From: Torpedo marmorata
Lineage: Eukaryota
Length of the DNA stretch: 64,000 bases
NCBI GenBank assembly: GCA_977017645.1
Contig: OZ360221.1
Coordinates: 203,422,001 to 203,486,000, forward strand
Direction of reading: 5' to 3'
The notes under the pieces were generated by a model. It saw only the letters and a list, made by a program, of their open reading frames with translations. It was not told the origin of the DNA and did no database searches. The translations under genes and the position numbers were made by a program. Of the stretch, positions 1-46,686 are shown one piece after another; positions within the stretch are counted from its first letter, which is position 1, and every line of letters begins with the position of its first letter.

Positions 1-453
1 CTGAACTCGAAATCCTTATGAACACCCAAGAAAGGGACGTCATCAGAGAGGAAAACAAGTATTTGTAAGCATAAACTGTCATTGTCTCTCTCCAACGTTC
101 ATTCAGAAGTACTTCTACCAGACACAGAGCTGAATTTGAAGCCTGAACTTAGAGAGTGAATTTTGTGGACTGTATTATCCTTTTTTTTTTGACTGACTTG
201 TTTTTTATGACTGACCTGGGGTTTTTGGGGAAAGTTTTTCCATTTTTACATAAGGGTTGGGCACAGACTGTAATGGTCTGGGCTTTACACACACACACAC
301 ACACACCTTTTTGATAAGAATAGTGTTTATAGACGTTTATAGTGGGGTTAATTGTTGTGAAATTATATGTTTAATTGTCTTTAATAAATAGTAATTTCAA
401 TTTTACACCTTTTGCATTGTGTCTTCTGTCGTTGCTGGTTTGAATTTGTAACA
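1..453 (+). repeat. 5' LTR (3' part) of Gmr1-like element
   Basis: Matches 5002-5453 with roughly 15 substitutions by eye; ends TGTAACA; AATAAA at ~383. Confidence 0.92.
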
Positions 454-456
454 AAT

Positions 457-474
457 TGGGGGCTCGTCCGGGAT
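457..474 (+). promoter_or_regulatory. Primer binding site, tRNA-Pro
   Basis: TGGGGGCTCGTCCGGGAT, 3 nt after the LTR end; the canonical 18-nt tRNA-Pro PBS (same as MLV). Confidence 0.92.
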
Positions 475-582
475 TTGAATCAAAACCATCTTGGTAATTG
501 AAGGAATCCCAGTTTGGTTTAAGGCATTCCTTTTGTAAAGCTAATTAAAAGCTAGTGTGTGTGTAACGAAAAACCAGCAACA

Positions 583-1704
583 ATGGATGTAGAACATTTT
601 TTGGAATCACCTGAACCTGATACTTTAAAAAAGGCGAAAAAGGAACAGTTAGTGGCTATAGCAACAGAGTTGGGCATTGCTTCTGTAAAACCATCTATGA
701 AAAAGGCTGAGATTGGGAGAAAAATTGTCAAATACTATATAAAAGAAAAAAGATTTTAGGAGAGCATGTTAGAGCAGTTTCCCAAGGGTAAACCTTCTGA
801 AAACATACAATTGGAAATAAAGAAATTGGAATTGAAACAAAAGAAATTGGAGGCAGACAGGGAACTAAAGAAATTGGAGGCAGACAGGGAACAAAAGAAA
901 TTTGACATGGAATTAGAACAAAAGAGATTAGACTTAGAGAATGATGAGAGAAATAGGAAATATGAGTTGGAAAAGATGAGGTTGGAAAATGAGAGGAGAC
1001 AAGAAGAGCGCCAAGATCAAATTCGTCAGCCTGCTGAGGGGTTTTTGGCTAGTAGAGAAGTTAGGTTGGTTCCTCCGTTTGAGGAGGCAGAAATAGATAA
1101 GTACTTCCAACATTTTGAGAAGGTGGCTGTGAAATTAAAATGGCCACAAGACCAATGGTCTCTTATGTTACAAAGTGTAATAAAAGGAAAAGCTCAGCAA
1201 GCTTATTCTACTCTCACCACAGAGCAAGCTGCTGAATATGAAACGGTGAAAAAGGCTATACTCCAGGCTTATGAGTTAGTTCCAGAGGCTTATAGACAGA
1301 AGTTTAGAAATTTAAAAAGATCAGCAACCCAATCTTATACAGAGTTTGCCTATGAAAAAGTTATGTGTTTTGACAGGTGGTGCACATCTAAGGCAGTAAA
1401 CAATGATTACAATCAATTGAGAGAATTGATAATAATCGAGGAGATAAAAAGGTGTGTTCCTGAGGATATTAAGGTATACTTAGATGAAAAGGAGGTGAAA
1501 ACTTGGCAAGATTCAGCTAAGTTAGCAGATGAATATGCTTTAACCCACAAGCCTAAGTGGACGTCAGGTAGAATTTTTCAAAAGGTCACGGTGGATAATC
1601 AGAAGCAAGTAGAAAGTAAATTTGGAAGTGGTGTTAAGGAAAGTGGAAAGGGGAAAACTATTCGGGTCCCATTTGCCACTACTGTAGGAAGGCTGGTCAT
1701 ATGA
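583..1704 (+). pseudogene. gag: Gag (coiled-coil + SCAN-like domain) of Gmr1-like element
   Basis: ORFs 559-759 and 766-1704 are in the same frame, split by TAG 757-759; motifs VPPFEEAEIDKYFQHFEKVA and YELVPEAYRQKFRNLK; frameshift before the CCHC knuckle. Confidence 0.85.
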
Positions 1705-3779
1705 TAGCAAGCTGTCCAGTGTTGAAAAAGAAGAGAGAAAAGGATGCAACACCTAATGCTTGTATTCAGAGTAAGAAGAGGCATAACACCCAGGAAGGAG
1801 ATAAATTTACTGACAAAGTTAAAGATGTATTTAAACCTTTTGTGACTGATGGTTTTGTTTCAGTTAAGGCAGGATCAAAACAAGTTCCAGTGAAAATCTT
1901 GCGAGATACTGGAGGTGCTCAGTCACTTGTGTTAGATAGTGTCTTGGAATTTTGTGAAGCTACTGACACGCGTGACATAAATTTAATTAAAGGAATTGGT
2001 GGTGATGTTGAGTCCATTCCTTTGCACAAAATAGTATTGGAATCAGACTTGGTGGAAGGACCAGTTATAATAGGAGTGAGATCAGAGTTGCCAGTAGAAG
2101 GAGTCTCACTGTTGTTAGGTAATGACTTGGCCAAGGGTAAAGTAGTTCCTGCAGTGCGAATGACCACTAAGCCAGTCATTGATAAGTCAGAGAAAGACTC
2201 TGATATTTATCCGGCATGTGCCATAACCAGGGCCATGTCTAAGAAAAATGTCACTGTAGAGAAGGCAGTGGAAAATAACTTGGTAAAAGAAAAAGACAAT
2301 GATAATCAAGAAAACCTGGAAAAGGTTGAGCTATCTCCTATGTTACACCCATCCACTGATAAGACACCTAAAGGCACAGATTTGTCACTATCCCGACAGG
2401 AGTTAATAGCAAGGCAAAAGGACGATCCTGATCTTGCTGAGGTGAGGGATAAGGTTCTCTCTGAAGAGGAGATTAAAAGGGGGCCAGTAGGTTATTATGA
2501 AAAAGATGGGGTGTTGATGAGAAAGTGGAGACCACGTGATGTTCCTGCCAATGAAGAATGGGCAGTAGTGCAGCAGGTTGTGATCCCTAAAGTATATAGG
2601 GATGCAATAATAACTTTGGCTCATAGTACACGCTTAGGTGGTCATCTTGGGGTGAAGAAAACTATAAGGAAGATAATGAAACAATTTTATTGGCCCAGTT
2701 TGAGAAGGGAGGTTGTAAGCTTTTGCCGGGCCTGTCACACTTGTCAGGTGGTGGGTAAACCTAATCAGGGTCCCCCGGTGGCACCCTTGCAACCTATCCC
2801 TGCTTTCAGTGAGCCTTTCTCGAGAGTAATTGTGGACTGTGTTGGCCCATTGCCCAAAACCAAAGCGGGGAATGAGTATTTGTTAACAATTATGTGTGCA
2901 GCCACCAGATTTCCAGAGGCCATTCCTTTGAGAAGCATAAAAGCAAAGTCCATTGTAAAGGCTATGGTAAAGTTTTTCACCTTGGTAGGTTTGCCAAGGG
3001 AAATTCAATCAGATCAGGGCAGTAATTTCATGTCAGGCGTTTTCCAACAAGTGGTTGATGGACTAGGAGTTAAACAGATTGTATCCTCTGCGTACCATCC
3101 AGAAAGTCAAGGGGCCTTGGAGAGGTTCCATTCGACTTTGAAAATCATGATTAGAACCTATTGTTGTGAGAAGGAAAAGGATTGGGATGAGGGGGTTCAT
3201 TTGTTGTTATTTGCAGCGAGGGAGTCTGTCCAAGACTCACTTGGTTTTAGTCCATTTGAGTTAGTTTTCGGGCATGAGGTGAGAGGTCCTTTAAGATTAT
3301 TAAAAGAACAGTGGATTAATCGTGATGTGCATTTAAATCTGTTAGATTATGTTTCCAAATTTAAGGATCGATTGCATAGGGCTAGTGAGATGGCAAAGGA
3401 GAATTTAAAGGCCACTCAACGGAGAATGAAGGTTTGGTATGATCAAAAGGCTAAGATGAGAACTTTTAAACCTGGTGAGAACGTATTAGTTCTGTTTCCC
3501 ATCCATTCAAATCATCTTAGGGCTAGATTTTCAGGACCCTATAGAGTTAAGTCAAAAATTAATGATGTCACCTATGTCATAGAAACACCTAATCGCAGAC
3601 GAGACACACAGGTCTGTCATGTGAATATGATTAAACCATATTTTGAACAGGTGCCACACAAAGGGACTGAAAATGTACCAGAGGTACTGGACTGGTTATT
3701 GACAGGGGTAAGGAGGAGACAGATAAAACCAGTTTCAGAGAGGGTCATGGGACTGTTAATTCTCGGAGTTATGTTGTAG
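1674..3779 (+). pseudogene. pol: Pol 5' part: zinc knuckle, aspartic protease, integrase (HHCC, DDE, GPY/F)
   Basis: CHYCRKAGHMIASC; ILRDTGGAQSL; HSTRLGGHLG...CRACHTC; VIVDCVGP...IQSDQGSNF...ESQGALE; RFSGPY. Confidence 0.9.
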
Positions 3780-4388
3780 GACAAGGGAAGTTGGTGCCAG
3801 TAGAGGCAAAGGTTGTGACTATTTCCGAGTTCCCTGATCCAATTGGTAAGAAAACTCTGAGGAGGTTCCTGGGAATGATTGGCTACTACCGTAAGTTCTG
3901 TAAAAACTTTGCTGATCTTGCGCTCCCTCTCACAAATTTGCTTAGAAAGAAACAAAAATTTGTATGGTCTACAGGTTGTCAGGAAGCATTTGTCAAATTG
4001 AAAGCCATGTTATGCCACCAACCTGTGCTTAAGTCACCTAATTTAGAACAGTCGTTTTCTTTAGCCGTGGATGCCAGCGATGAAGCTGTGGGTGCGGTGC
4101 TGTTACAGAAGAAGAACGAAGAGGACATTGACCATCCGGTATCCTACTTCTCAAAGAAGTTCAATGATCATCAAAGGAATTATTCAACTATAGAAAAAGA
4201 GTTGTTGGCTCTTGTGTTGGCTCTACAACACTTTGATGTGTATATAATCCATTGGTTTTTCTTTGTAAAATGAAAAATAAGAATCGACGGTTGTTGAATT
4301 GGAGTCTAATTTTGCAAGGATATAATTTGGTAATCACTCATATAAAAGGGAAAGATAATGTAATTGCTGATTGTCTTTCAGATGTTAA
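3765..4388 (+). pseudogene. pol: RT thumb/connection + RNase H remnant
   Basis: YVVGQGKLVP; LRRFLGMIGYYRKF; AVDASDEAVGAVLLQ; NYSTIEKELLA; terminal HIKGKDNVIADCLSRC in another frame; no YxDD palm. Confidence 0.88.
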
Positions 4389-4520
4389 ACTTTATTAATG
4401 AAAATAGTTCATATTTTGTATTTGTGGATGAACATTGTAGATTTTGTTTATATTGTGACACCTCAATTACTTTCCAAAATTTTGTTCTTGCAGACCAAAA
4501 TTTCCTTTGTGGGTGGGAGG

Positions 4521-5453
4521 TGTTATGGACCATGACTGACCATTTGGACTGCGGACGGTCAGCAGGAAGGATGAAGTCTTTTTGGAGTATACACTGGGGC
4601 CAGGTACTGAAAGAGTTAACTTCCCCAGGACTTGGTGTACCCAGACAGAGAGAGAGAGAGACAAGCTGTGGACAAAGATACATTGTTGCACTTTTGGTGT
4701 ACCCAGACAGAGAGAGACCAGAGAGAGAGACAGACAGACTGTGGACAAGATACATTTGTTACACTTTTGCAAAAAGCAGGTGTAGATCTCTGCAAGAAGC
4801 AGACAGTTGTAAGTTGCAAAGGCTAGAGAACACAGCCAAATCCAGGCGTGTGCATAGTCAGAGAAAAGACTGGCAGAATAGCACATGGCCTCCTGTCTCA
4901 GAGAAATTCTGAGGAAAAGCAAGTTCTGTGGGGAACAGGCGTGAGATCAGCGAGACTAGCTGTGAGATTCAAGCATACGCCTAAATCAGTGGTATATTGA
5001 TCTGAACTCGAAATCCTTATGAACACCCAAGAAGGGGACGTCATCAGAGAAGAAAACAAGTATTTGTAAGCATAAACAGTCATTGTCTCTCTCCAACGTT
5101 CATTCAGAAGTACGTCTACCAGACACAGAGCTAAATTTGAAGCCTGAACTTAGAGAGTGAATTTTGTAGACTGTATTATCCTTTTTTTTGACTGACTTGT
5201 TTTTTTTGACTGACCTGGGGTTTTTTGGGGAAAGTTTTTCCATTTTTACATAAGGGTTTGGCACAGACTGTAATGGTCTGGACTTTACACACACTCACAC
5301 ACACACCTTTTAGATAAGAATAGTGTTTATAGACGTTTATAGTGGGGTTAATTGTTGTGAAATTATATGTTTAATTGTCTTTAATAAATAGTAATTTCAA
5401 TTTTACCCCTTTTGCATTGCATCTTCTGTCGTTGCTGGTTTGAATTTGTAACA
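4521..5453 (+). repeat. 3' LTR of Gmr1-like element (933 bp)
   Basis: Follows purine tract GGGTGGGAGG (4511-4520); termini TGTTA...TAACA; internal ~62-bp direct duplication at ~4633-4768. Confidence 0.92.
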
Positions 5454-5644
5454 AGAGCTAATGAATTAGTTCTGTTCTGATTACTCCGACAGAGTGTGAG
5501 AGCGGTATAAATACATTAGAGTTACCAAACTCTCTTTCAGACCTTTCTCTCTTCTGTCAATGACCTAGCTTTGTTCCCTTCTATCCAGATGAATAGGTCT
5601 AGTTTTCCTTCTCTGCCAGTGTTATATTCCAAAAATATGGCATT

Positions 5645-11071: not shown

Positions 11072-11742
11072 TGTAAGAGCCGTAGGCTCAATAACTTACC
11101 TTGGTCGCGGTGCTCCGATGCCTCGACGGGTTATGGAGAAGTCGCGACGTTCGTAGGCCGTCCTCGGCCTGTTTGTGCTCTGCGCATGCGCTGGAGTGCC
11201 GACGGGCGCATGCGCAGTCTGAAATTGACGTCGTTGTGCGCGGTGTAGTATGGGAGATGTAGTATGCGCGGTGGAGCGTGCGCAGTGGAATAGGAGCATG
11301 GAGCATGCGCGAATCGGAAGGAATAGGAAAAAGATGGTGACGTAGGAGGGTGAGTGAGATCGCCATATCTTTTATTGACCGTTTCATACATCGTTTCATA
11401 CATCGTTTCATACATCGTTTCATACATCGTTTCATACATCGTTTCATCGAACGTTTTATACATCGTTTCATAGAACGTTTCATTGAACATTAAACTAGTT
11501 ACTTTGTGGTTTAAAATTGTTTATTTGAACATCTAAATACAGTCTAAGGAATCACTTAAAGGAACTCATACATCGTTTTCAAGAACTGTTTGTATTGAAG
11601 TCATTGAAGATTACTGCAAGTCACGTGTGTAAATAAAGTTTTTGATCATATTGGACTTTGTTGGTAAATTAATTGAAGCGTCAAAGACAAGTATCTCACT
11701 TAGCCTCCAGGTGACTATTGTTGGATAGAAGTCACCATAATA
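11072..11742 (+). repeat. 5' LTR of BEL copy A
   Basis: Starts TGTAAGAGCC, ends CACCATAATA; CpG-rich U3; 12-bp tandem TACATCGTTTCA at ~11380-11485. Confidence 0.92.
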
Positions 11743-12196
11743 TAGTCAATAAAAGTGGATGTTTGGAACAGAAAATTGAAGGAAATAAGATAGAATAATC
11801 TCTCTGTGCTTTGGACTGATATTTAAAATAAAATGGTGGCCATCTTGAAGATGCCTCGAGTTGGGGGCAGTTTGTAATCCACATCCATCTGCCATGAGTA
11901 ACAGCCAGAGAGGGATTTAAAGCTTCAAATCTTATAGTAAAGTGTACTATAAATACGTTGGAGAAACCATTTTTGGAAAATCAGTGATATTATTGACGGA
12001 TGTTGAGGTTGAAACTCGTTTGTGGATAGCAGCACATTACAGTCATTTGAAGTGGTAGGCATAAGTCTGTGGACTCCTTCTGTGTATCTTTGGCAAGTAA
12101 GAACTCAGATTGGAATTGCTGCTGCTGGTCCATTGGGGACTGTTGATTTGGCTAGTGTTGTGTATGCTTGAAGGACAGAGGAACAAGATGAGTAAA

Positions 12197-15100
12197 ATGG
12201 CCGCAGCAGCCTTTGATACAGCAGCCACTGATGTATCAGCAGCTGACGCAGCAACCGCTGATGTTGCTGTTGAGGACCAACGTATTGATGACATGAAGGT
12301 TACGGATATTAAAGAAGAATTGAAGCGACTGAAAAAGGACATAAGTGGAAATAAAAAGGTTCTTATCGCAAGATTGAAGCTGGCAAAGGAAGAAGAGGCA
12401 GCTTCATCAGATGAACAAGAAGATAACGTGGAAATGGCTGAAATTGTGTCACCAAATGATGAAGAAAATGATGAAGATATTGAAGAGGTTGAAGATGCAA
12501 AGGATATACAATTCGAATTGGATAAAGAGGTAAGTATGAAGACAACATATGAACTGCAGGACGAAATACAAGCAAGTGACAGTGTCTCAACTGCTGAAAG
12601 CAGGAGAAGCAAACAAAGTTCTGGTTTGAGCTCCAGGGTTTCTAGTACTTCAAGTTCTGCATCGTCACGTACAAAGATTGATTTTAAATTGGCCGCTTTT
12701 TTTGCACAACAAAAAACGCTTAAGGATAAACATATTTTAGAACAAAAGGAGGAGCAGCTAAGACAAAAGGAGGAGCAGCTAAAGGAGCAGCTAAGACAAA
12801 AGGAGGAGCAGCTAAAGGAGCAGCTAAGACAAAATGAGAAGCAGCTAAAGGAGCAGCTAAGACAAGAGAAGGAGCAGCTAAGGCAGAGAAAAGAACAGCA
12901 GGAGCTGGAAGCAAACATTGCTATTGCCAAGGCAAAAAAGAAAGCTCAATGGTATCTGGTGCTAGAAGTAAATTATCTAAAGTGTCTGATAATAAAAGGT
13001 CATATTTAAAAAAGGAGTCACAGGAAAAGAAACCAACCAAAAGGATAGATATTTTAGAACCAAGGATACAAAACTTGCATATACAAGGACAAATCTTTCA
13101 AGAGCATATTGGTATCGAGTCACATGTACCAGTGGTAACATCTGAAAGCAAAGCTGCGGCTTGGGTTCGGTCGAACGAAGCAACTTCTTTGTTATTTGAG
13201 TCAAGCATCAGAAATATGGAAGAAACTACACCAGTGAGGTTTCCAGATACATTACCTGCAACAAGAGACAGTGAACAGAGCAATGTATTGTCATCCAAGG
13301 GAAGACAAAATGAAATTGCTACATCATTGATTCAGTTACAGTCTCTCTCTTCTTTACCCAAGAAAGAGATACAAACTTTTGATGGTGATCCACTTCAGTA
13401 TCAATCATTTATGAAATCTTTCAAACGCAATATTGAAAATAAATGTCAAGATCGTGATGAATGTCTTTATTATTTGGAAATGTTCACAAAGGGACATCCA
13501 AAAGAACTGGTAAAGAGTTGTCAACAAATGTCTTCAGAAAGAGGACTAGACAAAGCTAAGGCTTTACTGGAACAACATTTTGGCAACAAGCATCGAATTG
13601 CTTTAGCTTATATAGATAAAGCTCTTAAATGGACATCAATAAAACAAAATGATGTAAAGGCTCTGCAAGAATATACTCTATTTTTAAGAGGATGTTGTAA
13701 TGCTATGGAAGATATTGATAATATTCGTGAGCTTGAAGTGCATAGTAATATGCAAATCATCTTAGAAAAATTACCTTACAAGTTATGGGCTAGATGGAGA
13801 AATTTGGCTTGTGATTTACAAGTAAATTACGGTCGAAGAGCTACCTTAAAGGATTTGGTAAATTTTCTTGAACAACAGGTGTACGTTGAAACAGATCCAC
13901 TATATGGAAATACCAGAGATAATTCAATGGGCAAAGATGTAAGGAAGTCTAATTCACAGCCTAGTCCAAAATTGAAAAGGAGTACTTTTGCTACTAATGT
14001 GTCAGTTATAAGTAAAGAAAAGGACAAAGTAAATAAGGAAAAGGAAAGTTTGCCTGATGAAAAGAGTTGTTTGTTCTGTAAAGGTGGACATGCTTTGGAA
14101 ATGTATTTACGATTGGAAAAGAAGGAACATAAGGAGATGATCGCTTTCTTAAAGGAAAATGGAATATGTTTTAGCTGTCTGTGTAAAGGGCACATCAGTA
14201 AAAACTGCGAGAAGCAAATTAATTGTAACATATGCAATTTGAAACATCCTAGAATTTTGCATATCCATAACAGAAACAAGGAATTGGAAAAGGAGCAAAC
14301 AGAAACAAAGGAAACAACAGAAAACAATGTTATAACCTCGGTTCAGACAAGTGGTCTTACCGGGGCCGGTGTGGATAACTGCAAACTTTCGATAGTGCCT
14401 GTACAAGTGAAGACCAAGAAAGGGGATGCAAAGGTAAAAACATATGCATTTCTTGACCCAGGCAGCACTGCATCTTTTTGCACGGAAGGACTAATGAATA
14501 AACTTAATATTCAAGGAAGAAAATCAAGAATTATGTTAAAAAACCATGGGACAAGAAAAGGTCGTTGAAACCAGCATTGTTTCAGGCTTAGAGGTTGCTG
14601 GATTATATGACAAAAAATTTTGTGATCTTCCAAGTTTATATACTCAGAAGACTATGCCTGTGCATGAAGGAAATATTCCTCATCAAAAGGATATCCAGCT
14701 TATCTGTGGAAGGTTTATTTACCTGAAATTAATTCTGAGATAGAAATGCTGATTGGTTCAGATGTGCCAAAGGTTTTGGAACCAATAGAAGTAATACAGA
14801 GTAGAAGGAATTGACATTACGCTATTAAAAACAAGCTTGGTTGGACAATCAATGGACCATTGGAAAGAAATAATGATATTACTCAGGAACAGTTAGCAAT
14901 AAATATTAATAGAATTTCGGTTGTGAAAGTTGAAGAGTTAAGTGAAGAGCAAAAAACTGTGAATAAGAAAATCACTTTTGAAGAAAAGAAAACAGATCAT
15001 TGTGAAAATAAATCAAGGGTATTTAAAACAACATTGAAGGAATTATTTTCACCAAAAATGGATGAAAGTGAAGTATTAGAAGATGTTGCAAATAATACTA

Positions 15101-15654
15101 TTGATTGTTCATGTGTAATTTAATCAGATACAGGAATAAAACAAGTGACTGAAAACAAATCTGAATGTAGATTTTGTAGTTCAGAGATTACAACAGACAA
15201 AGCTAATGAAGAAATATTGCAATGTGATGTAAAACTGGAGAACACAGAAAATTGTGCTGATGGAATAAAGAATAATGTGAATGATAATTTAATGCAATTG
15301 AATTCAGAGAACAAAATGTTAAAAGGGGAATTGTAAATATTAGATAATCATGAAAACAGTAAACAGAAAGATTTAATTGTAAGTAAAACTCGCAAAGTCA
15401 GAAAGCGGAAGAAAAGAATAACTGCTGAAGAAATGAATACAGTTATTGAGGAAAGAGATTCAGCATTATCAAAATGTAAAAGGTTGGAGGAAGAGATTAA
15501 TATTTTGAAAGAGAACAAGTTATTGGTTAATAACACAAAACAGTTGATTTTAAAAACCAATCAAGAATGTAAATTGAATGTTCAGCTATTAACAATGCAG
15601 AAAGAATGTGATATTGCATTGCAGAAATGTAACAAGCAAGATGAAGAAATTTAA
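12197..15654 (+). pseudogene. SAP-Gag-protease-MIPOL1-like fusion, disrupted
   Basis: Colinear with the intact ORF at 41569-45036, but with frameshifts (~12945, ~14540, ~14700) and stops (14812, 15121, 15334). Confidence 0.88.
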
Positions 15655-16059
15655 AAATTTCAAGTTTGCCACAGCAGGATTGACAATGGAAATATCAATG
15701 TATCACATGATATTTTGACTTCAAATCAAATTATTAATTTCTCGGAAAGAACTGAGACTGAATTGAAAGTTGCAAAATTGGATTTAGAATTGCAGGAAAG
15801 AGCAATAGAAACCAGAGTGGTTAAAGAGACCTGTTTATTAAAATCGAAAGGATCAAATAAATATTCAAATTCTAGTTCTAAGAGTTTAAATTCTTCACAT
15901 GAGAAGTGGAATGCTGAAGAAAGGAATAAAGTGAAACGACATGCTGAACAAGTGCCTCGTGTTAAATTCAAAAGAAAAACTGTATCTATTTTGTCTGAGG
16001 AAGATTTGAGGTTTACTGGTCGACATTTTAACTCAAAGATTATGGAGATAAAAGAACTT

Positions 16060-16245
16060 TAAAGAGACATTGTAATTATTATGGATAATTCAACTCCAAG
16101 AAACTCCTGGTTACTTGAAAAAATTATTGAGACTATTCAAGACAAAGGGACTTGTGCGTCAAGTGCGAATTAAAACTAAGACTGGCTTTCTCAATAGACC
16201 TATTAACAAGGTCTGTCTTTTGTTGGAGACAGAGGAACTTTGATA
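16060..16245 (+). pseudogene. BEL integrase C-terminal (DUF5641-like) remnant
   Basis: Reads DIVIIMDNSTPRNSWLL...GLVRQVRIKTKTGFLNRPINKVCLLLE across a frameshift; typical BEL pol terminus. Confidence 0.8.
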
Positions 16246-16448
16246 AATACAAACTGACTTTATTTGTTGTTGTATACTTCACAGGTTACAGACTTTTGTT
16301 GATTCAGAGTTATGGTAAACTCTGGTTTTATGAAGAAGGAAGAAAGAAGATTTGTATATTGTTTGAATGTTATGGTTATTGTTATTTATAATTTATAGTG
16401 TAATTATTATTTAAGACATTGCGTCTAATTATAATAATTAGGGGCCGG

Positions 16449-17100
16449 TGTAAGAGCCGTAGGCTCAATAACTTACCTTGGTCGCAGTGCTCCGATGCCT
16501 CGACGGGTTATGGAGAAGTCGCGACGTTCGTAGGCCGTCCTCGGCCTGTTTGTGCTCTGCGCATGCGCTGGAGTGCCAACGGGCGCATGCGCAGTCTGAA
16601 ATTGACGTTGTTGTGCGCGGTGCAGTATGGGAGATGTAGTATGCGCGGTGGAGCGTGCGCAGTGGAATAGGAGCATGGAGCATGCGCAAATCGGAATGAA
16701 TAGGAAAAAGATGGCAACATAGGAGGGTGAGTGAGATCACCATATCTTTTATTGACCGTTTCATAGATCGTTTCATAGATCGTTTCATAGATCGTTTCAT
16801 CGAACGTTTTATACATCGTTTCATAGAATGTTTCATTGAACATTAAACTAGTTACTTTGTGGTTTAAAATCGTTTATTTGAACATCTAAATACAGTCTAA
16901 GGAATCATTTAAAGAAACTCATCATACATCGTTTTCAAGAACCGTTTGTACTGAAGTCATTGAAGATTACTGCAAGTCACGTGTGTAAATAAAGTTTTTG
17001 AACATATTGGACTTTGTTGGTAAATTAATTGAAACGCGTCAAAGACAAGTATCTCACTTAGCCTCCAGGTGACTATTGTTGGATAGAAGTCACCATAATA
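16449..17100 (+). repeat. 3' LTR of BEL copy A
   Basis: Follows PPT-like TTAGGGGCCGG; direct repeat of 11072-11742. Confidence 0.92.
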
Positions 17101-39900: not shown

Positions 39901-40094
39901 CTTCCTTCAAATCTAGGTGTTCTTCTACCCTACTCTCCACATTCACATTCTGATTCCCACCCCCCTGCCAAACTAGTTTAAACCCTCCCCAATAGCTCTA
40001 GCAAACCTGCCTGCCAGGATATCGGTCCCCCTCCAGTTCAAGTGCAGCCCGTCCCTTTTGTACAGGTCAGACCTTCCCCAGAAGAGATCCCAAT
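36933..40094 (-). mobile_element. CR1 LINE, 3' part (end of ORF1, ORF2 APE-RT, tail)
   Basis: YFNARSI, AISETWL, IGDFN, KSPGPD, PQGSVLGP, KYADD, RPNLEYCAQFWSP; two frameshifts (~38810, ~38410); tail (GTTATATG)n. Confidence 0.95.
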
Positions 40095-40786
40095 TATAAG
40101 TAACGGTGACTTCGCTCCACCAATAGTCACCTGGAGGCTAAGTGTGGTCCTTGCTTTTGACGCGTTTTATTTAGTTTACTGACAAAGTTCAATATGTTCA
40201 AAAACCTTTATTTTCACACATGACTTGCAGTAATCTTCAATGACTTTAATATAAACAGTTCTTGTAAACGATGTATGATAAGTTCCTTTAAATTATTCCT
40301 TAAACAATTCCAAAACGATATGAAACACTGTAGATGATGTTAAAGTTATAGAAACATTATAAAACGGTATAAAACGGTCAATAAAGATGTGGAGACCAGA
40401 CTCACCCCCCATACATCTCTATCCTTTCTTTGTTCTCTCTCTCCAATGGTTCTGCGCATGCTCCAACGCGCATACTACAATTCCCAGCCTCCCACGCGCA
40501 CTATGACGTCACTCTATACTGCGCATGCGCCCGTCGGCACTCCCGCGCATGCGCATATCAAAGAACGGGCCGACGACGGCCCACAGAACAACGCAAGCGC
40601 TCCAAGGCCCGACGTGGCCTCGGAGCGCGCTGAGGACGGCCCAGTGAACAACGCGAGCGCTCAATGGCCCGACGTGGCCCAGGAGCGCTCCGAGGACGGC
40701 CCACCGAACCACGCGAGCGCTCCAAGGCCCGACGAGACATCGGAGCGCCGCAACAACGGTAAGTTAACGAGCCTACGGCTCTTACA
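40095..40786 (-). repeat. 3' LTR of BEL copy B
   Basis: Same length and sequence as 45484-46175; three ~60-bp CpG-rich tandem units at ~40572-40750. Confidence 0.93.
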
Positions 40787-40982
40787 CCGGCCCCTAATTA
40801 TTATAATTAGACGTAATGTCTTGAATAATAATTACACTATAAATAATAATAACCATAACATTCAAAACAATACAAATCTTCTTTCTTCCTTCTTCATAAA
40901 TCTAGAGTTTACCATAACTCTGATTCAACAAAAGTCTGTAACCTGTGAAATGTACAACAACAAATAAAGTCAGTTTACATTT

Positions 40983-41175
40983 ATCAAAGTTCCTCTGTCT
41001 CCAACAAAAGGCAGACCTGGTTAATAGGTCTGCTTAGAAAACCAGTCTTAGCTTTAATTCGCACTTGACGCACAAGTCCTCTTTGTCTTGAAAAGTCTCA
41101 ATAATCTTTTCCAAGTAACCAGGAATTTCTTGAAGTTGAACCATCCATAACAATCACAATGTCTCTTTAAAGTTC
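40983..41175 (-). pseudogene. BEL integrase C-terminal (DUF5641-like) remnant
   Basis: DIVIVMDGSTSRNSWLLGK...GLVRQVRIKAKTGFLSRPINQVCLLLE, with frameshifts. Confidence 0.8.
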
Positions 41176-41202
41176 TTTTATCTTCACAATCCGAGTCAAA
41201 CG

Positions 41203-41568
41203 TCAACCAGTAAACCTCAAATCCTCCTCAGACAAAATAGATACAGTTTTTCTTTTGAATTTAACACAAGGCACTTCTTCAGCACGTCGTTTCACTTTAT
41301 TCCTTTCTTCAGTATTCCACTTCTCATGTGAAGAATTTAAACTCTTAGAATTAGAATTTGAATATTTATTTGATTCTTTCGATTTTAAACAGGTCTGTTT
41401 AACCACTCTGGTTTCTAATGCTCTTTCCTGCAATTCTAAATCCAATTTCGCAATTTTCAATTCAGTCTCAGCTCCTTCCGAGAAATTAATAATTTGATCT
41501 GAAGTCAAAATATCATATGGTACATTGATATTTCCATTGTCAATCCTGTCGCGACAAACTTGAAATTT
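41203..41568 (-). other. In-frame open continuation after the TAA stop of the fusion ORF (coiled-coil, partly MIPOL1-like)
   Basis: ORF 41203-41508 is in the same frame as 41569-45078, with no stop between; same layout at 15655-16062. Confidence 0.55.
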
Positions 41569-44500
41569 TTAAATTTCTTCGTCTTGCTTGTTACATTTCT
41601 GCAATGCAATCTCACATTCTTTCTGCATTGTTAATTGTTGAACATTCAATTTACATTCTTGATTGGTTTTAAAAGTCAACTGTTTTGTGTTATTAACCAA
41701 TAACTTGATCTCTTTCAAAACATTAATCTCTTCCTCCAACCTTTTACATTTTGATAATGCTGAATCTCTTTCCTCAATAACTGTATTCATTTCTTCAGCA
41801 GTTATTCTTTTCTTCCGCTTTCTGACTTTGCGAGTTTTACTTACAATTAAATCTTTCTGTTTACTGTTTTCTTGTTTATTTAATATTTCCAATTCTCCTT
41901 TCAACATTTTGTTCTCTGAATCATTATTCTTTATTCCATCAGCACAATTTTCTGTGTTCTCCATTTTTACATTACATTGCAATAATTCTTCATTAGCTTT
42001 GTCAATTGTAATATCTGAACTACAAAATCTACATTCAGATTTGTTTTCAGTCACTTGTTTTATTCCTGTATTTGATTCAATTACACATGAATGATCAAAA
42101 GCATTATTTGCAACATCTTCTAATACTTCACTTTCATCCATTTCTGACGAAATTAATTTCTTCAATGTTGTTTCAAATACCACTGATTTATCGTTACATT
42201 GATCTGTTTTCTTTTCTTCATAAGTGATTTTCTTATTCACGGTTTTTTGCTTTTCTCTTAACTCTTCAAATTTCTCAACTGAAATTTTATTAACATTTAT
42301 CGCTACCTGTGCCTGAGCAATATCATTATTTCTTTCCATTGGTCCATTGATTGCCCAACCAAGTATGGTTCTAATAGCGTAAGGTCCATTCCTTTTACTT
42401 TCTATTACTTCTTTTGGTACCAAAACCTTTGGCACATCTGAACCAATCAGCATTTCTATCTCAGAATTAATTTCAGGTAAATAAACCTTCCACAGATAAG
42501 CTAAATGATGGATATCACTTTGATGAGGAATATTTCCTTCGTTCACAGGCATAGTCTTCTGAGTATATACACTTGGAAGATCACAAAATTTTTTGTCATC
42601 CAATCCAGCAACCTCTAAGCCTGAAACAATGTTAGTTTCAACAACCTTTTCTTGTCCCATGGTTTTTAACATAATTCTTGATTTTCTTCCTTGAATATTA
42701 AGTTTATTCATTAGTCCTTCCGTGCAAAAAGATGCAGTGCTACCTGGGTCTAGAAGTGCATATGTTTTTACTATTGCATCCCCTTTCTTGGCCTTAACTT
42801 GTACAGGCACTATTGAAAGTTTGCAGTTATTCACCCCGGCCCCAGTAAGACCACTTGTCTGAACCGAGGTTATAACATTATTTTCTGTTGTTTCCTTTGT
42901 TTCTGTTTGCTCCTTTTCCAATTCCTTGTTTCTGTTATGGATATGCAAAATTCTAGGATGTTTCAAATTGCATATGTCACAATTAATTCGCTTCTCACAG
43001 TTTTTACTGATGTGCCCTTTACACAGACAGCTAAAACATATTCCATTTTCCTTTAAGAAAGCGATCTTTTCCTTATGTTCCTTCTTTTCCAATTGTAAAC
43101 ACATTTCCAAAGCATGTCCACCTTTACAGAACAAACAACTCTTTTCATTAGGCAAACTTTCCTTTTCCTTATTTATTTTGTCCTTTTCTTTACTTATAAC
43201 TTGCACATTAGTAGCAAAAGTACTCCTTTTCACTTTCGGACTAGACTGTGAATTAGACTTCCTTACATCTTTGCTCATTGAATTATCTCTGGTATTTCCA
43301 TATAGTGGATCTGTTTCAACATACACTTGTCGTTCAAGAAAATTTACCAAATCCTTTAAAGTAATTCTTCGACCATAATTTACTTGTAAATCACAAGCCA
43401 AATTTCTCCATCTATCCCATACCTTGTAAGGTAATTTTTCTAAAATGATTCGCATATTACTATGCACTTCAAGCTCACGAATATTATCGATTTCTTCCAT
43501 AGCATTACAACATCCTCTTAAAAACAAAGTATATTCTTGCAAAGCTTTTATATCATTTTGTTTTATTGATGTCCATTTAAGAGCTTTATCCATATAAGCT
43601 AAAGCAATTCGATGTTTGTTGCCAAAATATTGTTCCAATAAAGCCTTAGCTTTGTCTAATCCTCTTCCTGAAGACATTTGGTTACAACTTTTTACCAATT
43701 CTTTTGGATGTCCCTTTGTGAACATTTCCAAATAATAAAGACATTCATCTCGATCTTGGCATTTATCTTCAATATTGCGTTTGAAAGATCTCATAAATGA
43801 TTGATATTGAAGTGGATCACCATTAAAAGTTTGTATCTCTTTCTTGGGTAAAGAAGAGAGAGACTGTAACTGAAACAATGATGCAGCAATTTCATTTTGT
43901 CTTTCCTTGGATGACAATACATTGCTCTGTTCACTGTTTCGTGTTGTATGCAATGTATCTGGAAACCTTACTGGTGTAGTTTCTTCCATATTTCTGATGC
44001 TTGACTCACATAACAAAGAAGCTACTTCGTTCGACCGAACCCAATCTGCAGCTTTGCTTTCAGATGTTACCATTGGTACATGTGACTCGATACCAAAATG
44101 CTCTTGAAAGGTTTGACCTTGTATATGTAAGTTTTGTATCCTTGGTTCTAAAATATCTATCCTTTTGGTTGGTTTCTTTTCCTGTGACTCCTTTTTTAAA
44201 TATGACCTTTTATTATCAGACAATTTAGATGATTTACTGCTAGCACCAGATACCATTGAGCCTTCTGTTGCTTTCTTTTTTGCCTTGGCAATAGCAATGT
44301 TTGCTTCCAGCTCCTGCAGTTCTTTTCTCTGCCTTAGCTGCTCCTTCTCTTGTCTTAGCTGCTCCTCCTTTTGTCTTAGCTGCTCCTTTAGCTGCTTCTC
44401 ATTTTGTCTTAGCTGCTCCTCCTTTTGTCTTAGCTGCTCCTTTAGCTGCTCCTCATTTTGTCTTAGCTGCTCCTTTAGCTGCTCCTCATTTTGTCTTAGC

Positions 44501-45036
44501 TGCTCCTCCTTTTGTCTTAGTTGTTCCTCTTCTTGTTCTAATATAAATTTATCCTTAAGCGTTTTTTGTTGTGCAAGAAGAGCGGCCAAGTCAACTTCAA
44601 TCTTTGTACGTGACGATGTAGAACTTGAAATACGAGAAACTCTGGAGCTCGAACCAGAACTTCTTTTGCTTCTCCTGCTTTCAGCATTTGAGACACTGTC
44701 ACTTGCTTGTATTTCGTCCTGCAGTTCATATGTTGTCTTCATACTTACCTCTTTATCCAATTCAAATTGTTCATCATTTGTTGATACAATTTCAGCCATT
44801 TCCAAGTTATCTTCTTGTTCAAATAATGAAGCTGCCTCTTCATCCTTTGCCTGCTTCAATCTTTCAATAAGAACCTTCTTATTTCCACTTATGTCCTTTT
44901 TCAGTCGCTTCAATTCTTCTTTAATATCCGCAACCTTCATGTCTTCAATACGTTGGTCCTCAACAGCAACATCAGCGGTTGCTGCGTCAGCTGCTGATAA
45001 ATCAGTAGCTGCTGTATCAGTAGCTGCTGCGGCCAT
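41569..45036 (-). CDS. BEL polyprotein: SAP domain, coiled-coil repeats, Gag (DUF1759-like, three zinc knuckles), aspartic protease, captured MIPOL1-like coiled-coil
   Basis: Open 1169-aa frame (likely ATG 45036, context AAAATGG). SAP: MKVADIKEELKRLKKDISGNKKVLIERL. Gag: LPKKEIQTFNGDPLQYQSF, CLFCKGGH, CFSCLCKGH, CDICNLKH. Protease: YALLDPGSTASF, IGSD, GPYAIRTILGW. C-terminus RITAEEMNTVIEERDSALSKCKRLEEE. Confidence 0.9.
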   Translation of the reverse strand: MAAAATDTAATDLSAADAATADVAVEDQRIEDMKVADIKEELKRLKKDISGNKKVLIERLKQAKDEEAASLFEQEDNLEMAEIVSTNDEQFELDKEVSMKTTYELQDEIQASDSVSNAESRRSKRSSGSSSRVSRISSSTSSRTKIEVDLAALLAQQKTLKDKFILEQEEEQLRQKEEQLRQNEEQLKEQLRQNEEQLKEQLRQKEEQLRQNEKQLKEQLRQKEEQLRQEKEQLRQRKELQELEANIAIAKAKKKATEGSMVSGASSKSSKLSDNKRSYLKKESQEKKPTKRIDILEPRIQNLHIQGQTFQEHFGIESHVPMVTSESKAADWVRSNEVASLLCESSIRNMEETTPVRFPDTLHTTRNSEQSNVLSSKERQNEIAASLFQLQSLSSLPKKEIQTFNGDPLQYQSFMRSFKRNIEDKCQDRDECLYYLEMFTKGHPKELVKSCNQMSSGRGLDKAKALLEQYFGNKHRIALAYMDKALKWTSIKQNDIKALQEYTLFLRGCCNAMEEIDNIRELEVHSNMRIILEKLPYKVWDRWRNLACDLQVNYGRRITLKDLVNFLERQVYVETDPLYGNTRDNSMSKDVRKSNSQSSPKVKRSTFATNVQVISKEKDKINKEKESLPNEKSCLFCKGGHALEMCLQLEKKEHKEKIAFLKENGICFSCLCKGHISKNCEKRINCDICNLKHPRILHIHNRNKELEKEQTETKETTENNVITSVQTSGLTGAGVNNCKLSIVPVQVKAKKGDAIVKTYALLDPGSTASFCTEGLMNKLNIQGRKSRIMLKTMGQEKVVETNIVSGLEVAGLDDKKFCDLPSVYTQKTMPVNEGNIPHQSDIHHLAYLWKVYLPEINSEIEMLIGSDVPKVLVPKEVIESKRNGPYAIRTILGWAINGPMERNNDIAQAQVAINVNKISVEKFEELREKQKTVNKKITYEEKKTDQCNDKSVVFETTLKKLISSEMDESEVLEDVANNAFDHSCVIESNTGIKQVTENKSECRFCSSDITIDKANEELLQCNVKMENTENCADGIKNNDSENKMLKGELEILNKQENSKQKDLIVSKTRKVRKRKKRITAEEMNTVIEERDSALSKCKRLEEEINVLKEIKLLVNNTKQLTFKTNQECKLNVQQLTMQKECEIALQKCNKQDEEI

Positions 45037-45483
45037 TTTACTCGTCTTGTTCCTCTTTCCTTCAAGCATACACAACACTAGTCAAACAACAGTCCCCAAT
45101 GGACCAGCGGCAGCAATTCCAATCTGTGTTCTTACTTGCTAAAGATACACAGAAGGAGTCCACAGACTTATGCCTACCACTTCTAATGACTGTAATGTGC
45201 TGCAATCCTTAAACGAGTTTCAACCACAACATCCGTCACTAATATCACTGATTTTCCAAAAATAGTTTCTCCAACGTATTTATAGGACACTTTATTATAA
45301 GATTTGAAGCTTTAAATCCCTCTCTGGCTGTTATTCATGGCAGATGGAAGTGGATTACAAACTGCCCCCAACTCGAGGCATCTCCAAAATGGCCACCAAT
45401 TTATATCAGTCCAAAGCACAGAGAGTTTTTTTCTATCTTCTTTCCTTCAAACTTCTGTTCCAAACAGCCAGCCCTTTATTGAC

Positions 45484-46175
45484 TATAAGTAACGGTGACT
45501 TCGCTCCACCAATAGTCACCTGGAGGCTAAGTGTGGTCCTTGCTTTTGACGCGTTTTATTTAGTTTACTGACAAAGTTCAATATGTTCAAAAACCTTTAT
45601 TTTCACACATGACTTGCAGTAATCTTCAATGACTTTAATATAAACAGTTCTTGTAAACGATGTATGATAAGTTCCTTTAAATTATTCCTTAAACAATTCC
45701 AAAACGATATGAAACACTGTAGATGATGTTAAAGTTATAGAAACATTATAAAACGGTATAAAACGGTCAATAAAGATGTGGAGACCAGACTCACCCCCCA
45801 TACATCTCTATCCTTTCTTTGTTCTCTCTCTCCAATGGTTCTGCGCATGCTCCAACGCGCATACTACAATTCCCAGCCTCCCACGCGCACTATGACGTCA
45901 CTCTATACTGCGCATGCGCCCGTCGGCACTCCCGCGCATGCGCATATCAAAGAACGGGCCGACGACGGCCCACAGAACAACGCAAGCGCTCCAAGGCCCG
46001 ACGTGGCCTCGGAGCGCGCTGAGGACGGCCCAGTGAACAACGCGAGCGCTCAATGGCCCGACGTGGCCCAGGAGCGCTCCGAGGACGGCCCACCGAACCA
46101 CGCGAGCGCTCCAAGGCCCGACGAGACATCGGAGCGCCGCAACAACGGTAAGTTAACGAGCCTACGGCTCTTACA
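45484..46175 (-). repeat. 5' LTR of BEL copy B
   Basis: Minus strand starts TGTAAGAGCC, ends TTACTTATA; several TGCGCATGCGC palindromes. Confidence 0.93.
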
Positions 46176-46686
46176 CCAATGATCCACAAATGTGAACCCC
46201 TGCCCCCAGCACCAACTGTTTAGCCACGCATTCATCCTCCACATCTTCCTATTCCTACCCTCTCTAGCGTGTGGCACAGGCAGCAATCCTGAGATTACCA
46301 CCCTCGAGGTCCTGCTTTTTAACTTCCTTCCTAACTCCTTATATTCCTTCTTCAGGACCTCATTCCCATTTCTTTCTATGTCATTGGTCCCCACGTAGAC
46401 CACGACACCTGGCTGCTCGCCCTCCCCCTCCAGAATGCTGAGTACTCGATCAGAGACATCCCTGACCCTGGCACCCGGAAGGCAACATACCAACCGGGAG
46501 CTCCGATCTTGTCCAGCAAACCTTCTATCTGTTCCTCTAACCAGCGAGTCCCCAATTACAAAAGCTCTCCTCTTTTCCCCCCTTCCCTTCTGAGCCAAGG
46601 GGCCATCCCCGTGCCAGAGACCTGACCCCCGCGACTTGTCCCTTGTAGGTTGTCCCCCCCAACAGTATCCAAAGCAGTATACTTAT
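46176..46686 (-). mobile_element. CR1 LINE, 5' part (ORF1 SGNH esterase)
   Basis: RRAFVIGDSLVRGTDRRF, CCLPGARVRDV, VYVGTND, FVDHW; joins 40094 across the BEL insertion. Confidence 0.92.

Follow-up and report, generated by a model that had tools for sequence, protein, structure and literature searches.

A non-autonomous BEL/Pao retrotransposon of Torpedo marmorata with BRCA1, MIPOL1 and Elongin A sequence in place of pol, and a MIPOL1 piece most likely copied from a circular RNA

The window, that is, the whole stretch of 64,000 nucleotides that was analysed, contains an LTR retrotransposon which, from its sequence, is a non-autonomous BEL/Pao element whose pol has given way to cDNA from the host genes BRCA1, MIPOL1 and Elongin A. 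The exons of the MIPOL1 piece stand in a permuted order, and this piece was most likely copied from a back-spliced circular RNA rather than from mRNA. Taken together, we consider it probable that RNAs of three genes, including a likely MIPOL1 circle, were captured and that the resulting element depends for copying in trans on a pol-bearing sister family, the two recombining with each other.

The element and its captured host sequences

The element is complete and lies on the minus strand at 46175-40095, with two LTRs of 692 bp that are 100% identical and a 5-bp target duplication, inserted in what its motifs suggest is a CR1-like LINE. Another, older member of the cargo family also lies in the window; the parts are as follows.

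45484..46175, minus strand: 5' LTR of 692 bp with TG..TA termini, flanked by the target duplication at 46176-46180
41569..45081, minus strand: single frame of 1170 aa (SAP, coiled repeats, Gag, knuckles, protease, cargo), with its stop codon at 41569-41571
44848-44949, minus strand: SAP domain at the Gag N-terminus (Pfam E 3e-8)
about 43137-42960, minus strand: Cys/His knuckles
near 42750, minus strand: active-site motif of the protease (weak Pfam match, E 0.03)
41847..42251, minus strand: BRCA1 cDNA fragment, two host exons (host G000:C61:25504642-25488147)
41198..41404, minus strand: Elongin A cDNA fragments (host G000:C41:38994689-38994846 and 39005551-39005599)
40985..41165, minus strand: integrase C-terminal remnant, common to the young pol-bearing family
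40787..40799, minus strand: polypurine tract position
40095..40786, minus strand: 3' LTR; target duplication at 40090-40094
11072..17094, plus strand: the other, older cargo copy, 90% identical to the first and frameshifted, its two LTRs 93% identical to each other

The SAP domain is found at the Gag N-terminus of cargo and pol-bearing copies alike; we considered it as a fourth host capture and rejected this, as it had no match among 1,520 candidates and the pol-bearing copies have it too. Elsewhere in the window, positions 1-5454 of the plus strand hold a Gypsy-like element with 96% LTRs and integrase motifs ahead of an RT/RNase H remnant, a domain order that we take to be Gmr1-like.

The window copy has no RT, RNase H or integrase of its own. 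It aligns with its pol-bearing relatives up to about 42247 and again from 41165, close to the limits of about 42250 and 41175 that an earlier, sequence-only reading had given for the BEL similarity. That reading took the roughly 1.05 kb in between for a MIPOL1-like insert. The replacement (1.08 kb, 42246-41166) is indeed non-pol host sequence, namely spliced host cDNA in the sense orientation and in the Gag-protease frame, but MIPOL1 accounts only for 41854-41395, about 450 nt; the order is BRCA1, then MIPOL1, then Elongin A. Nor is the insert read from Gag throughout in the window copy, which stops at 41569-41571 and leaves the last 370 nt or so of its cargo unread; in most of the copies sampled the frame is open there.

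All eight protein matches of the sequence before MIPOL1 were BRCA1 (best E 3e-70), and what follows MIPOL1 was identified as Elongin A, by Pfam (above cut-off) and by PDB 8oev (E 8e-37). For the last 125 aa of the frame, 10 of 10 matches were MIPOL1 proteins (209 candidates; best E 3e-27), with 62% identity to an electric-ray MIPOL1; the best protein matches are from rays, an electric ray first. As DNA, the window cargo is 73-87% identical to the three host genes, and 79-87% identical to the MIPOL1 exons of its own genome, across splice junctions. Older copies are closer, their cargo being about 91-98% identical to host exons. Introns of 0.6 to 83 kb are removed at every exon join, and, in the older copies, BRCA1 has three such joins, MIPOL1 five (not counting the back-splice) and Elongin A four. 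In these, the BRCA1 part consists of four spliced host exons (short exons 89-100% identical, the long one about 89-93%, 77% in one copy) and the Elongin A part of five exons, spliced and in order. The older copies also contain the Elongin A BC-box region, which is absent from the window copy and from the young family. Exon skipping was ruled out for the loss of Elongin A exon 5, which is a short-repeat deletion.

The joins from gene to gene all fall within exons and show either 0-4 nt of shared sequence or, in two cases, fillers of 11 and about 17 nt that the explanation proposed below does not account for. No chimeric protein like the cargo was found in the best 150 of 736 representative-library matches, ranked by best stretch. 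A public electric-ray BRCA1 model (P0011) has, in place of the RING domain, a start (residues 1-190) that resembles a retrotransposon Gag, probably an annotation artefact.

The amino acids E, K and Q are abundant in both the element's protein and MIPOL1, and the sequence-only reading had itself named generic coiled-coil bias, or a normal part of BEL elements, as what would overturn it. We regard either of these, or an assembly artefact, as a negligible prospect: old copies are 91-98% identical in DNA to host exons, with exact splice joins, the cargo is missing from pol-bearing relatives, there are thousands of copies, and the cargo stretch was covered in 30 of 30 bins in each of three sequencing runs with the labels of other studies and organisms. 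One of these runs, X6, is RNA-like, having a spliced Elongin A join and leaving unique introns uncovered, and it covers the cargo; intronic repeats are deep in it too, and its contigs give neither strand nor level.

The MIPOL1 piece and its back-splice junction

A single host MIPOL1 gene was located, 400 kb were fetched and the exons, denoted here by letters, were mapped. The segment spans host exon junctions with the introns removed, as the earlier reading had asked to be checked, but the exon order is permuted. The A-B-C joins of the element lack host introns of 29 and 78 kb, and exon C is followed not by exon D but by exon X, whose place in the host gene is 206 kb farther upstream.

41549..41854, minus strand: MIPOL1 exons A (3' part), B and C, spliced (host G000:C40:64492636-64385712)
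41548..41549, minus strand: back-splice junction, exon C donor joined to exon X acceptor
41395..41548, minus strand: MIPOL1 exon X (5' part) joined to exon Y (3' part) across a deletion of 27 codons

In six of six copies, the 73 nt after exon C agreed with exon X in 51-54 letters at offset 0, compared with 12-26 at offsets of −9 to +9, 15-17 for the linear next exon D and a background mean of 19.8 (sd 4.1). An older subfamily, recovered by searching with host exon X, has C followed by X (and Y) at 11 of 11 loci, with identities to the host of 95-98% and 96-98%, and the second copy in the window (11072..17094, plus strand) has the identical junction. A perfect 23-mer across the C-X junction occurred 153 times, and its control not once; exon X is single-copy within the 400-kb host locus. 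The circle suggested by these joins, from X to C, would be 780 nt long, without a stop in the host frame and with flanking introns of 50 and 62 kb; 589 of the 780 nt were captured, and both entry and exit lie within exons. Exons W and D, which are outside the circle, had no match in the 11 old loci or in six younger copies, and downstream MIPOL1 exons are present only at the host locus. The piece thus has what is expected of a circRNA retrocopy, a non-colinear junction exactly at splice sites and only exons from within the circle. Because reverse transcriptase reads its template from 3' to 5', a circular template would allow passage from X to C without a jump. We looked in the flanks for a second round of the MIPOL1 circle and rejected it, as z was mostly under 2 in six copies and the flanks are BRCA1 and Elongin A.

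The same order might have arisen without a circle, by a jump of reverse transcriptase between linear mRNAs or by copying of a trans-spliced transcript with repeated exons. In linear MIPOL1 mRNA, the C|D and W|X joins share 3 nt, so a jump between two such mRNAs could yield the same letters, a trans-spliced linear RNA would likewise fit the sequence, later deletions in the cargo family use similar short repeats, and Dong et al. caution, in the part of their paper covered here, that non-colinear junctions may arise in other ways (PMC4897178). We nevertheless think these routes quite unlikely, since the C-X junction ends exactly on splice sites whereas all of the gene-to-gene joins are mid-exon; by a rough estimate, two splice sites would be hit by chance about once in 1,000 cases, even with the 3-nt microhomology allowed. 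A back-spliced circle is therefore the template that we prefer. The earlier claim that an LTR element had transduced a host mRNA holds in so far as spliced host RNA was taken up at the expense of pol, but three genes are concerned, and for MIPOL1 the RNA was most likely circular. As a separate observation, the introns of the host MIPOL1 gene (G000:C40:64300001-64700000) contain four copies of the exon-carrying element, which are a trap for annotation and read mapping.

Copies, pol-bearing relatives and reading frame

A degenerate pattern for the junction gave 15,041 genomic matches (control 0), which is a lower bound on the number of copies and answers the copy count asked for in the earlier reading with at least that figure; the 34,634 candidates of a first look, and the seven copies in a biased 764 kb, are not copy counts. 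At about 6 kb each, 15,041 copies would amount to roughly 90 Mb, or 1.5% of the 6.2 Gb assembly. Copies were sampled by pattern matching, in small numbers (30 young, 20 old and 12 pol-bearing). Of 30 sampled copies, 10 had frames of 1,175-1,349 aa through the cargo and 12 had LTR pairs of 98.4-100% identity, compared with about 82-93% in old copies where pairs were found; the 5-bp target duplications were clean in both classes. The 3' terminus of the LTR is the canonical CA in old copies and has become TA in young ones, cargo and helper alike (window 40095 and 45484; L117 and L118). At G000:C1:1498493-1518382, five junction matches at an exact spacing of 4,964 bp form a tandem array of the cargo element.

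A search for the integrase joined to the element's 3' remnant gave 192 matches, of which 12 loci were fetched. Frames longer than 1,600 aa were found in 8 of the 12 and LTR pairs of 98-100% in 9; MIPOL1 was absent from 11, and the twelfth has a nested cargo copy. Their Pfam domains (Peptidase_A17, DUF1759, DUF5641, RVT_1 and rve) are the BEL/Pao set; paired LTRs with a 5-bp duplication, and in this sister family a single Gag-PR-RT-RH-IN frame, agree with that assignment. Helpers had also been sought with old RT and RNase H/integrase probes, an approach that was rejected as it gave broken frames only (150 scored of 7,937 and 7,151 candidates).

The window copy and the pol-bearing copies are 87-99% identical over LTR, gag and protease (gag 93.6-98.6%, protease 87-97%), whereas the gag of the window copy is 69-74% identical to that of old cargo copies, and its MIPOL1 block 80-84% identical to theirs. 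A tree of gag was built from 39 rows (25 cargo, 9 pol-bearing and 5 old; rows of less than 85% coverage left out). In it, pol-bearing copies were intermixed with cargo copies, and monophyly of the helpers was rejected (p-AU 5e-5), in a test that presumes one tree though the gag region recombines. Within the helpers, dS was higher in gag (0.04-0.11) than in pol (0.01-0.02). The shared LTR, gag and protease and the intermixed gag tree suggest that recombination probably passed the cassette on to newer backbones. Repeated events of this kind would have renewed the backbone and retained the cassette, with short-repeat deletions trimming it and a 3' swap removing the BC-box.

We propose that host RNAs may have been packaged together in a particle, where reverse transcriptase would have switched template onto BRCA1, MIPOL1 and Elongin A RNAs, the MIPOL1 template being presumably the back-spliced circle. 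The element provides Gag, protease and all of the cis signals, and the pol-bearing sister family would copy it in trans and recombine with it.

Selection was assessed against a null that keeps the mutation spectrum, counting variants common to three or more copies. The relative N/S was 0.51 for gag (P<0.001, 26 copies) and 0.55 for protease (P 0.015, 29 copies), and purifying selection on the gag of cargo copies may be inherited from the helpers through recombination. The cargo gave 0.76 (P 0.09, 31 copies, shared variants), and host against element 0.93 (P 0.36); BRCA1 and MIPOL1 variants of the old family were neutral. The frame behaves differently. Shared indels in the cargo were in frame in 3 of 3 cases, compared with 10 of 30 singletons, one shared stop was observed where 5.3 were expected, and the nine later joins leave each block in its host frame (about 5e-5 if they are independent). 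The frame stayed open past 41569 in 30 of the 30 closest copies and in 22 of 26 scorable sampled copies; a truncating stop after exon C, which removes the last 122 codons, occurs in the other 4 of the 26, among them the window copy, whose LTRs are identical; in two other runs about half of the contig depth has it too. An open frame is therefore not strictly needed. The frame of the cargo is thus favoured and its residues are mostly near-neutral, and the cargo is most likely translated filler in which an open frame is favoured (for instance for RNA stability or translation through it) while the residues drift.

We also weighed whether the cargo might encode a functional module that aided the spread of the family. 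The MIPOL1 coiled coil would multimerize Gag-protease in place of Pol, and the ancestral BC-box of Elongin A would have recruited an Elongin BC-cullin ligase in the manner of HIV Vif. This we consider unlikely. The three pieces are all sense and in frame, the nine later joins preserve host frames and the coiled-coil core is the best-kept block of the cargo, but under the mutation-spectrum null the cargo is near neutral, as are the old BRCA1 and MIPOL1 variants, and the pairwise dN/dS of about 0.4 for the cargo came from uncorrected NG86, which overstated constraint and was superseded. In 11 of 20 old copies the BC-box motif can be read, and its shared variants lean synonymous (17 against 11.5 expected), although the uncorrected P of 0.04 is one of 15 tests; moreover, the BC-box was gone before the large expansion, and truncating stops spread. 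Translated filler therefore remains the reading that we follow.

Judged by eye, the ten bases that follow the 5' LTR do not form a tRNA-type site. They are complementary to a 10-mer inside the LTR.

45766..45775, minus strand: 10-mer inside the LTR, complementary to the bases that immediately follow the 5' LTR; predicted transcript start and self-primer
45474..45483, minus strand: primer-binding position, complementary to 45766-45775

Perfect complementarity of this kind, 9-14 nt long, was found in 28 of the 31 copies that could be scored. Both complementary stretches differ between the old and the young class, and pairing an old one with a young one leaves about 5 nt, a compensatory change. 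The family looks self-primed, with a Tf1-type signature in which the complementarity and its compensatory change are observed and priming would follow from them. The signature lies at 45766-45775 and 45474-45483 (minus strand) in the window, and the copies concerned are L155-L181, L215-L224 and L116-L119. In L177, near 1324, and in L218, the primer site inside the LTR leads straight into the reverse complement of the LTR terminus, which may be a fold-back at the site of priming or an inversion between the two complementary 10-mers. In self-primed Tf1/sushi and TAR elements, a site inside the LTR is complementary to the primer-binding position over 10-11 nt (PMC7175516, PMC6317226); the arrangement is the same here, but those elements are Ty3/gypsy and Ty1/copia, whereas this family is BEL/Pao. 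No report of self-priming for BEL was found in the literature searched, the sources covered dealing with the Gypsy and Copia groups only. A bolder account would have a self-priming BEL element copy the circle and the BRCA1 and Elongin A mRNAs as a selfish in-frame cassette encoding a coiled coil and a Vif-like BC-box, which hops between helper backbones by recombination and outnumbers its helper by one to two orders of magnitude, its protein being selected for particle assembly or escape from defence; in this full form we doubt it.

Relation to known systems and significance

Acutely transforming retroviruses carry host cDNA fused to gag, have lost pol, depend on a helper and recombine with it. 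The comparison with gag-onc fusions made in the sequence-only reading fits the anatomy of the element, but it is structural only, because the cargo residues are near-neutral (0.93 against the host, 0.76 within the cargo, neither with clear purifying selection) though the frame is kept. A captured protein that is functional and selected, as gag-onc fusions have, was not found, apart from a weak hint at the old BC-box; the element also differs from those viruses in having no env and in being a germline retrotransposon.

Among LTR elements with captured sequence, maize Bs1 contains partial exons of three unlinked host genes, with shared switch points, and is copied as a unit, according to the part of Tan et al. 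(2016) covered here (PMC5131818). It is given there as having 1-5 copies per genome, whereas the window family has at least 15,041, is a vertebrate BEL/Pao family with all pieces in frame, contains a back-spliced piece and has an identified helper; both have intronless partial host cDNA in place of the internal ORF between LTRs. The same paper describes LTR-mediated retrocopies in animals, in which the internal ORF is replaced by partial mRNAs with mid-exon joins and microsimilarity or short fillers, multi-gene chimeras (a four-gene case in the mouse), secondary retroposition and a mosquito retrocopy flanked by BEL18_AG, so that the earlier belief that host capture was undescribed in BEL/Pao does not hold. 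The window family resembles these retrocopies in its replaced internal ORF, mid-exon joins and multi-gene cargo. The main text of that paper, supplements aside, contains neither 'circular' nor 'circRNA', and in the part covered here there is no case of such a copy number or of a cassette moving between backbones.

Circular-RNA-derived pseudogenes have been described for mouse circRFWD2 (Dong et al. 2016, PMC4897178), with 33 high-confidence copies, LTR-rich flanks and a mechanism that the covered part of the paper calls mysterious. The exact non-colinear donor-acceptor junction, the lack of poly(A) and the LTR context are common to circRFWD2 and the window family, in which, however, the circle piece lies inside a mapped element, between two captured RNAs and in the Gag frame; the supplements of that paper may place circRFWD2 copies in an LTR element. 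Multi-gene capture by LTR elements, including BEL (PMC5131818), and circRNA pseudogenes (PMC4897178) are thus, on the parts of these papers covered, already known separately. In the open literature, outside Repbase and supplements, no report was found of their combination at such a copy number, of the window family or of a back-spliced piece in a multi-gene in-frame cassette.

The route by which circular RNAs enter genomes was left open in the covered part of Dong et al. (PMC4897178), and a back-splice junction inside a mapped LTR element, between two captured RNAs, points to template switching in a particle. The family would then be a fossil record of a germline circle, and its thousands of datable copies record the history of a gag-host fusion through capture, trimming and helper swaps. 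The family's copies of BRCA1, MIPOL1 and Elongin A are in sense orientation and could give rise to small RNAs directed against those genes, and they could confound annotation and the calling of circular RNAs in rays.
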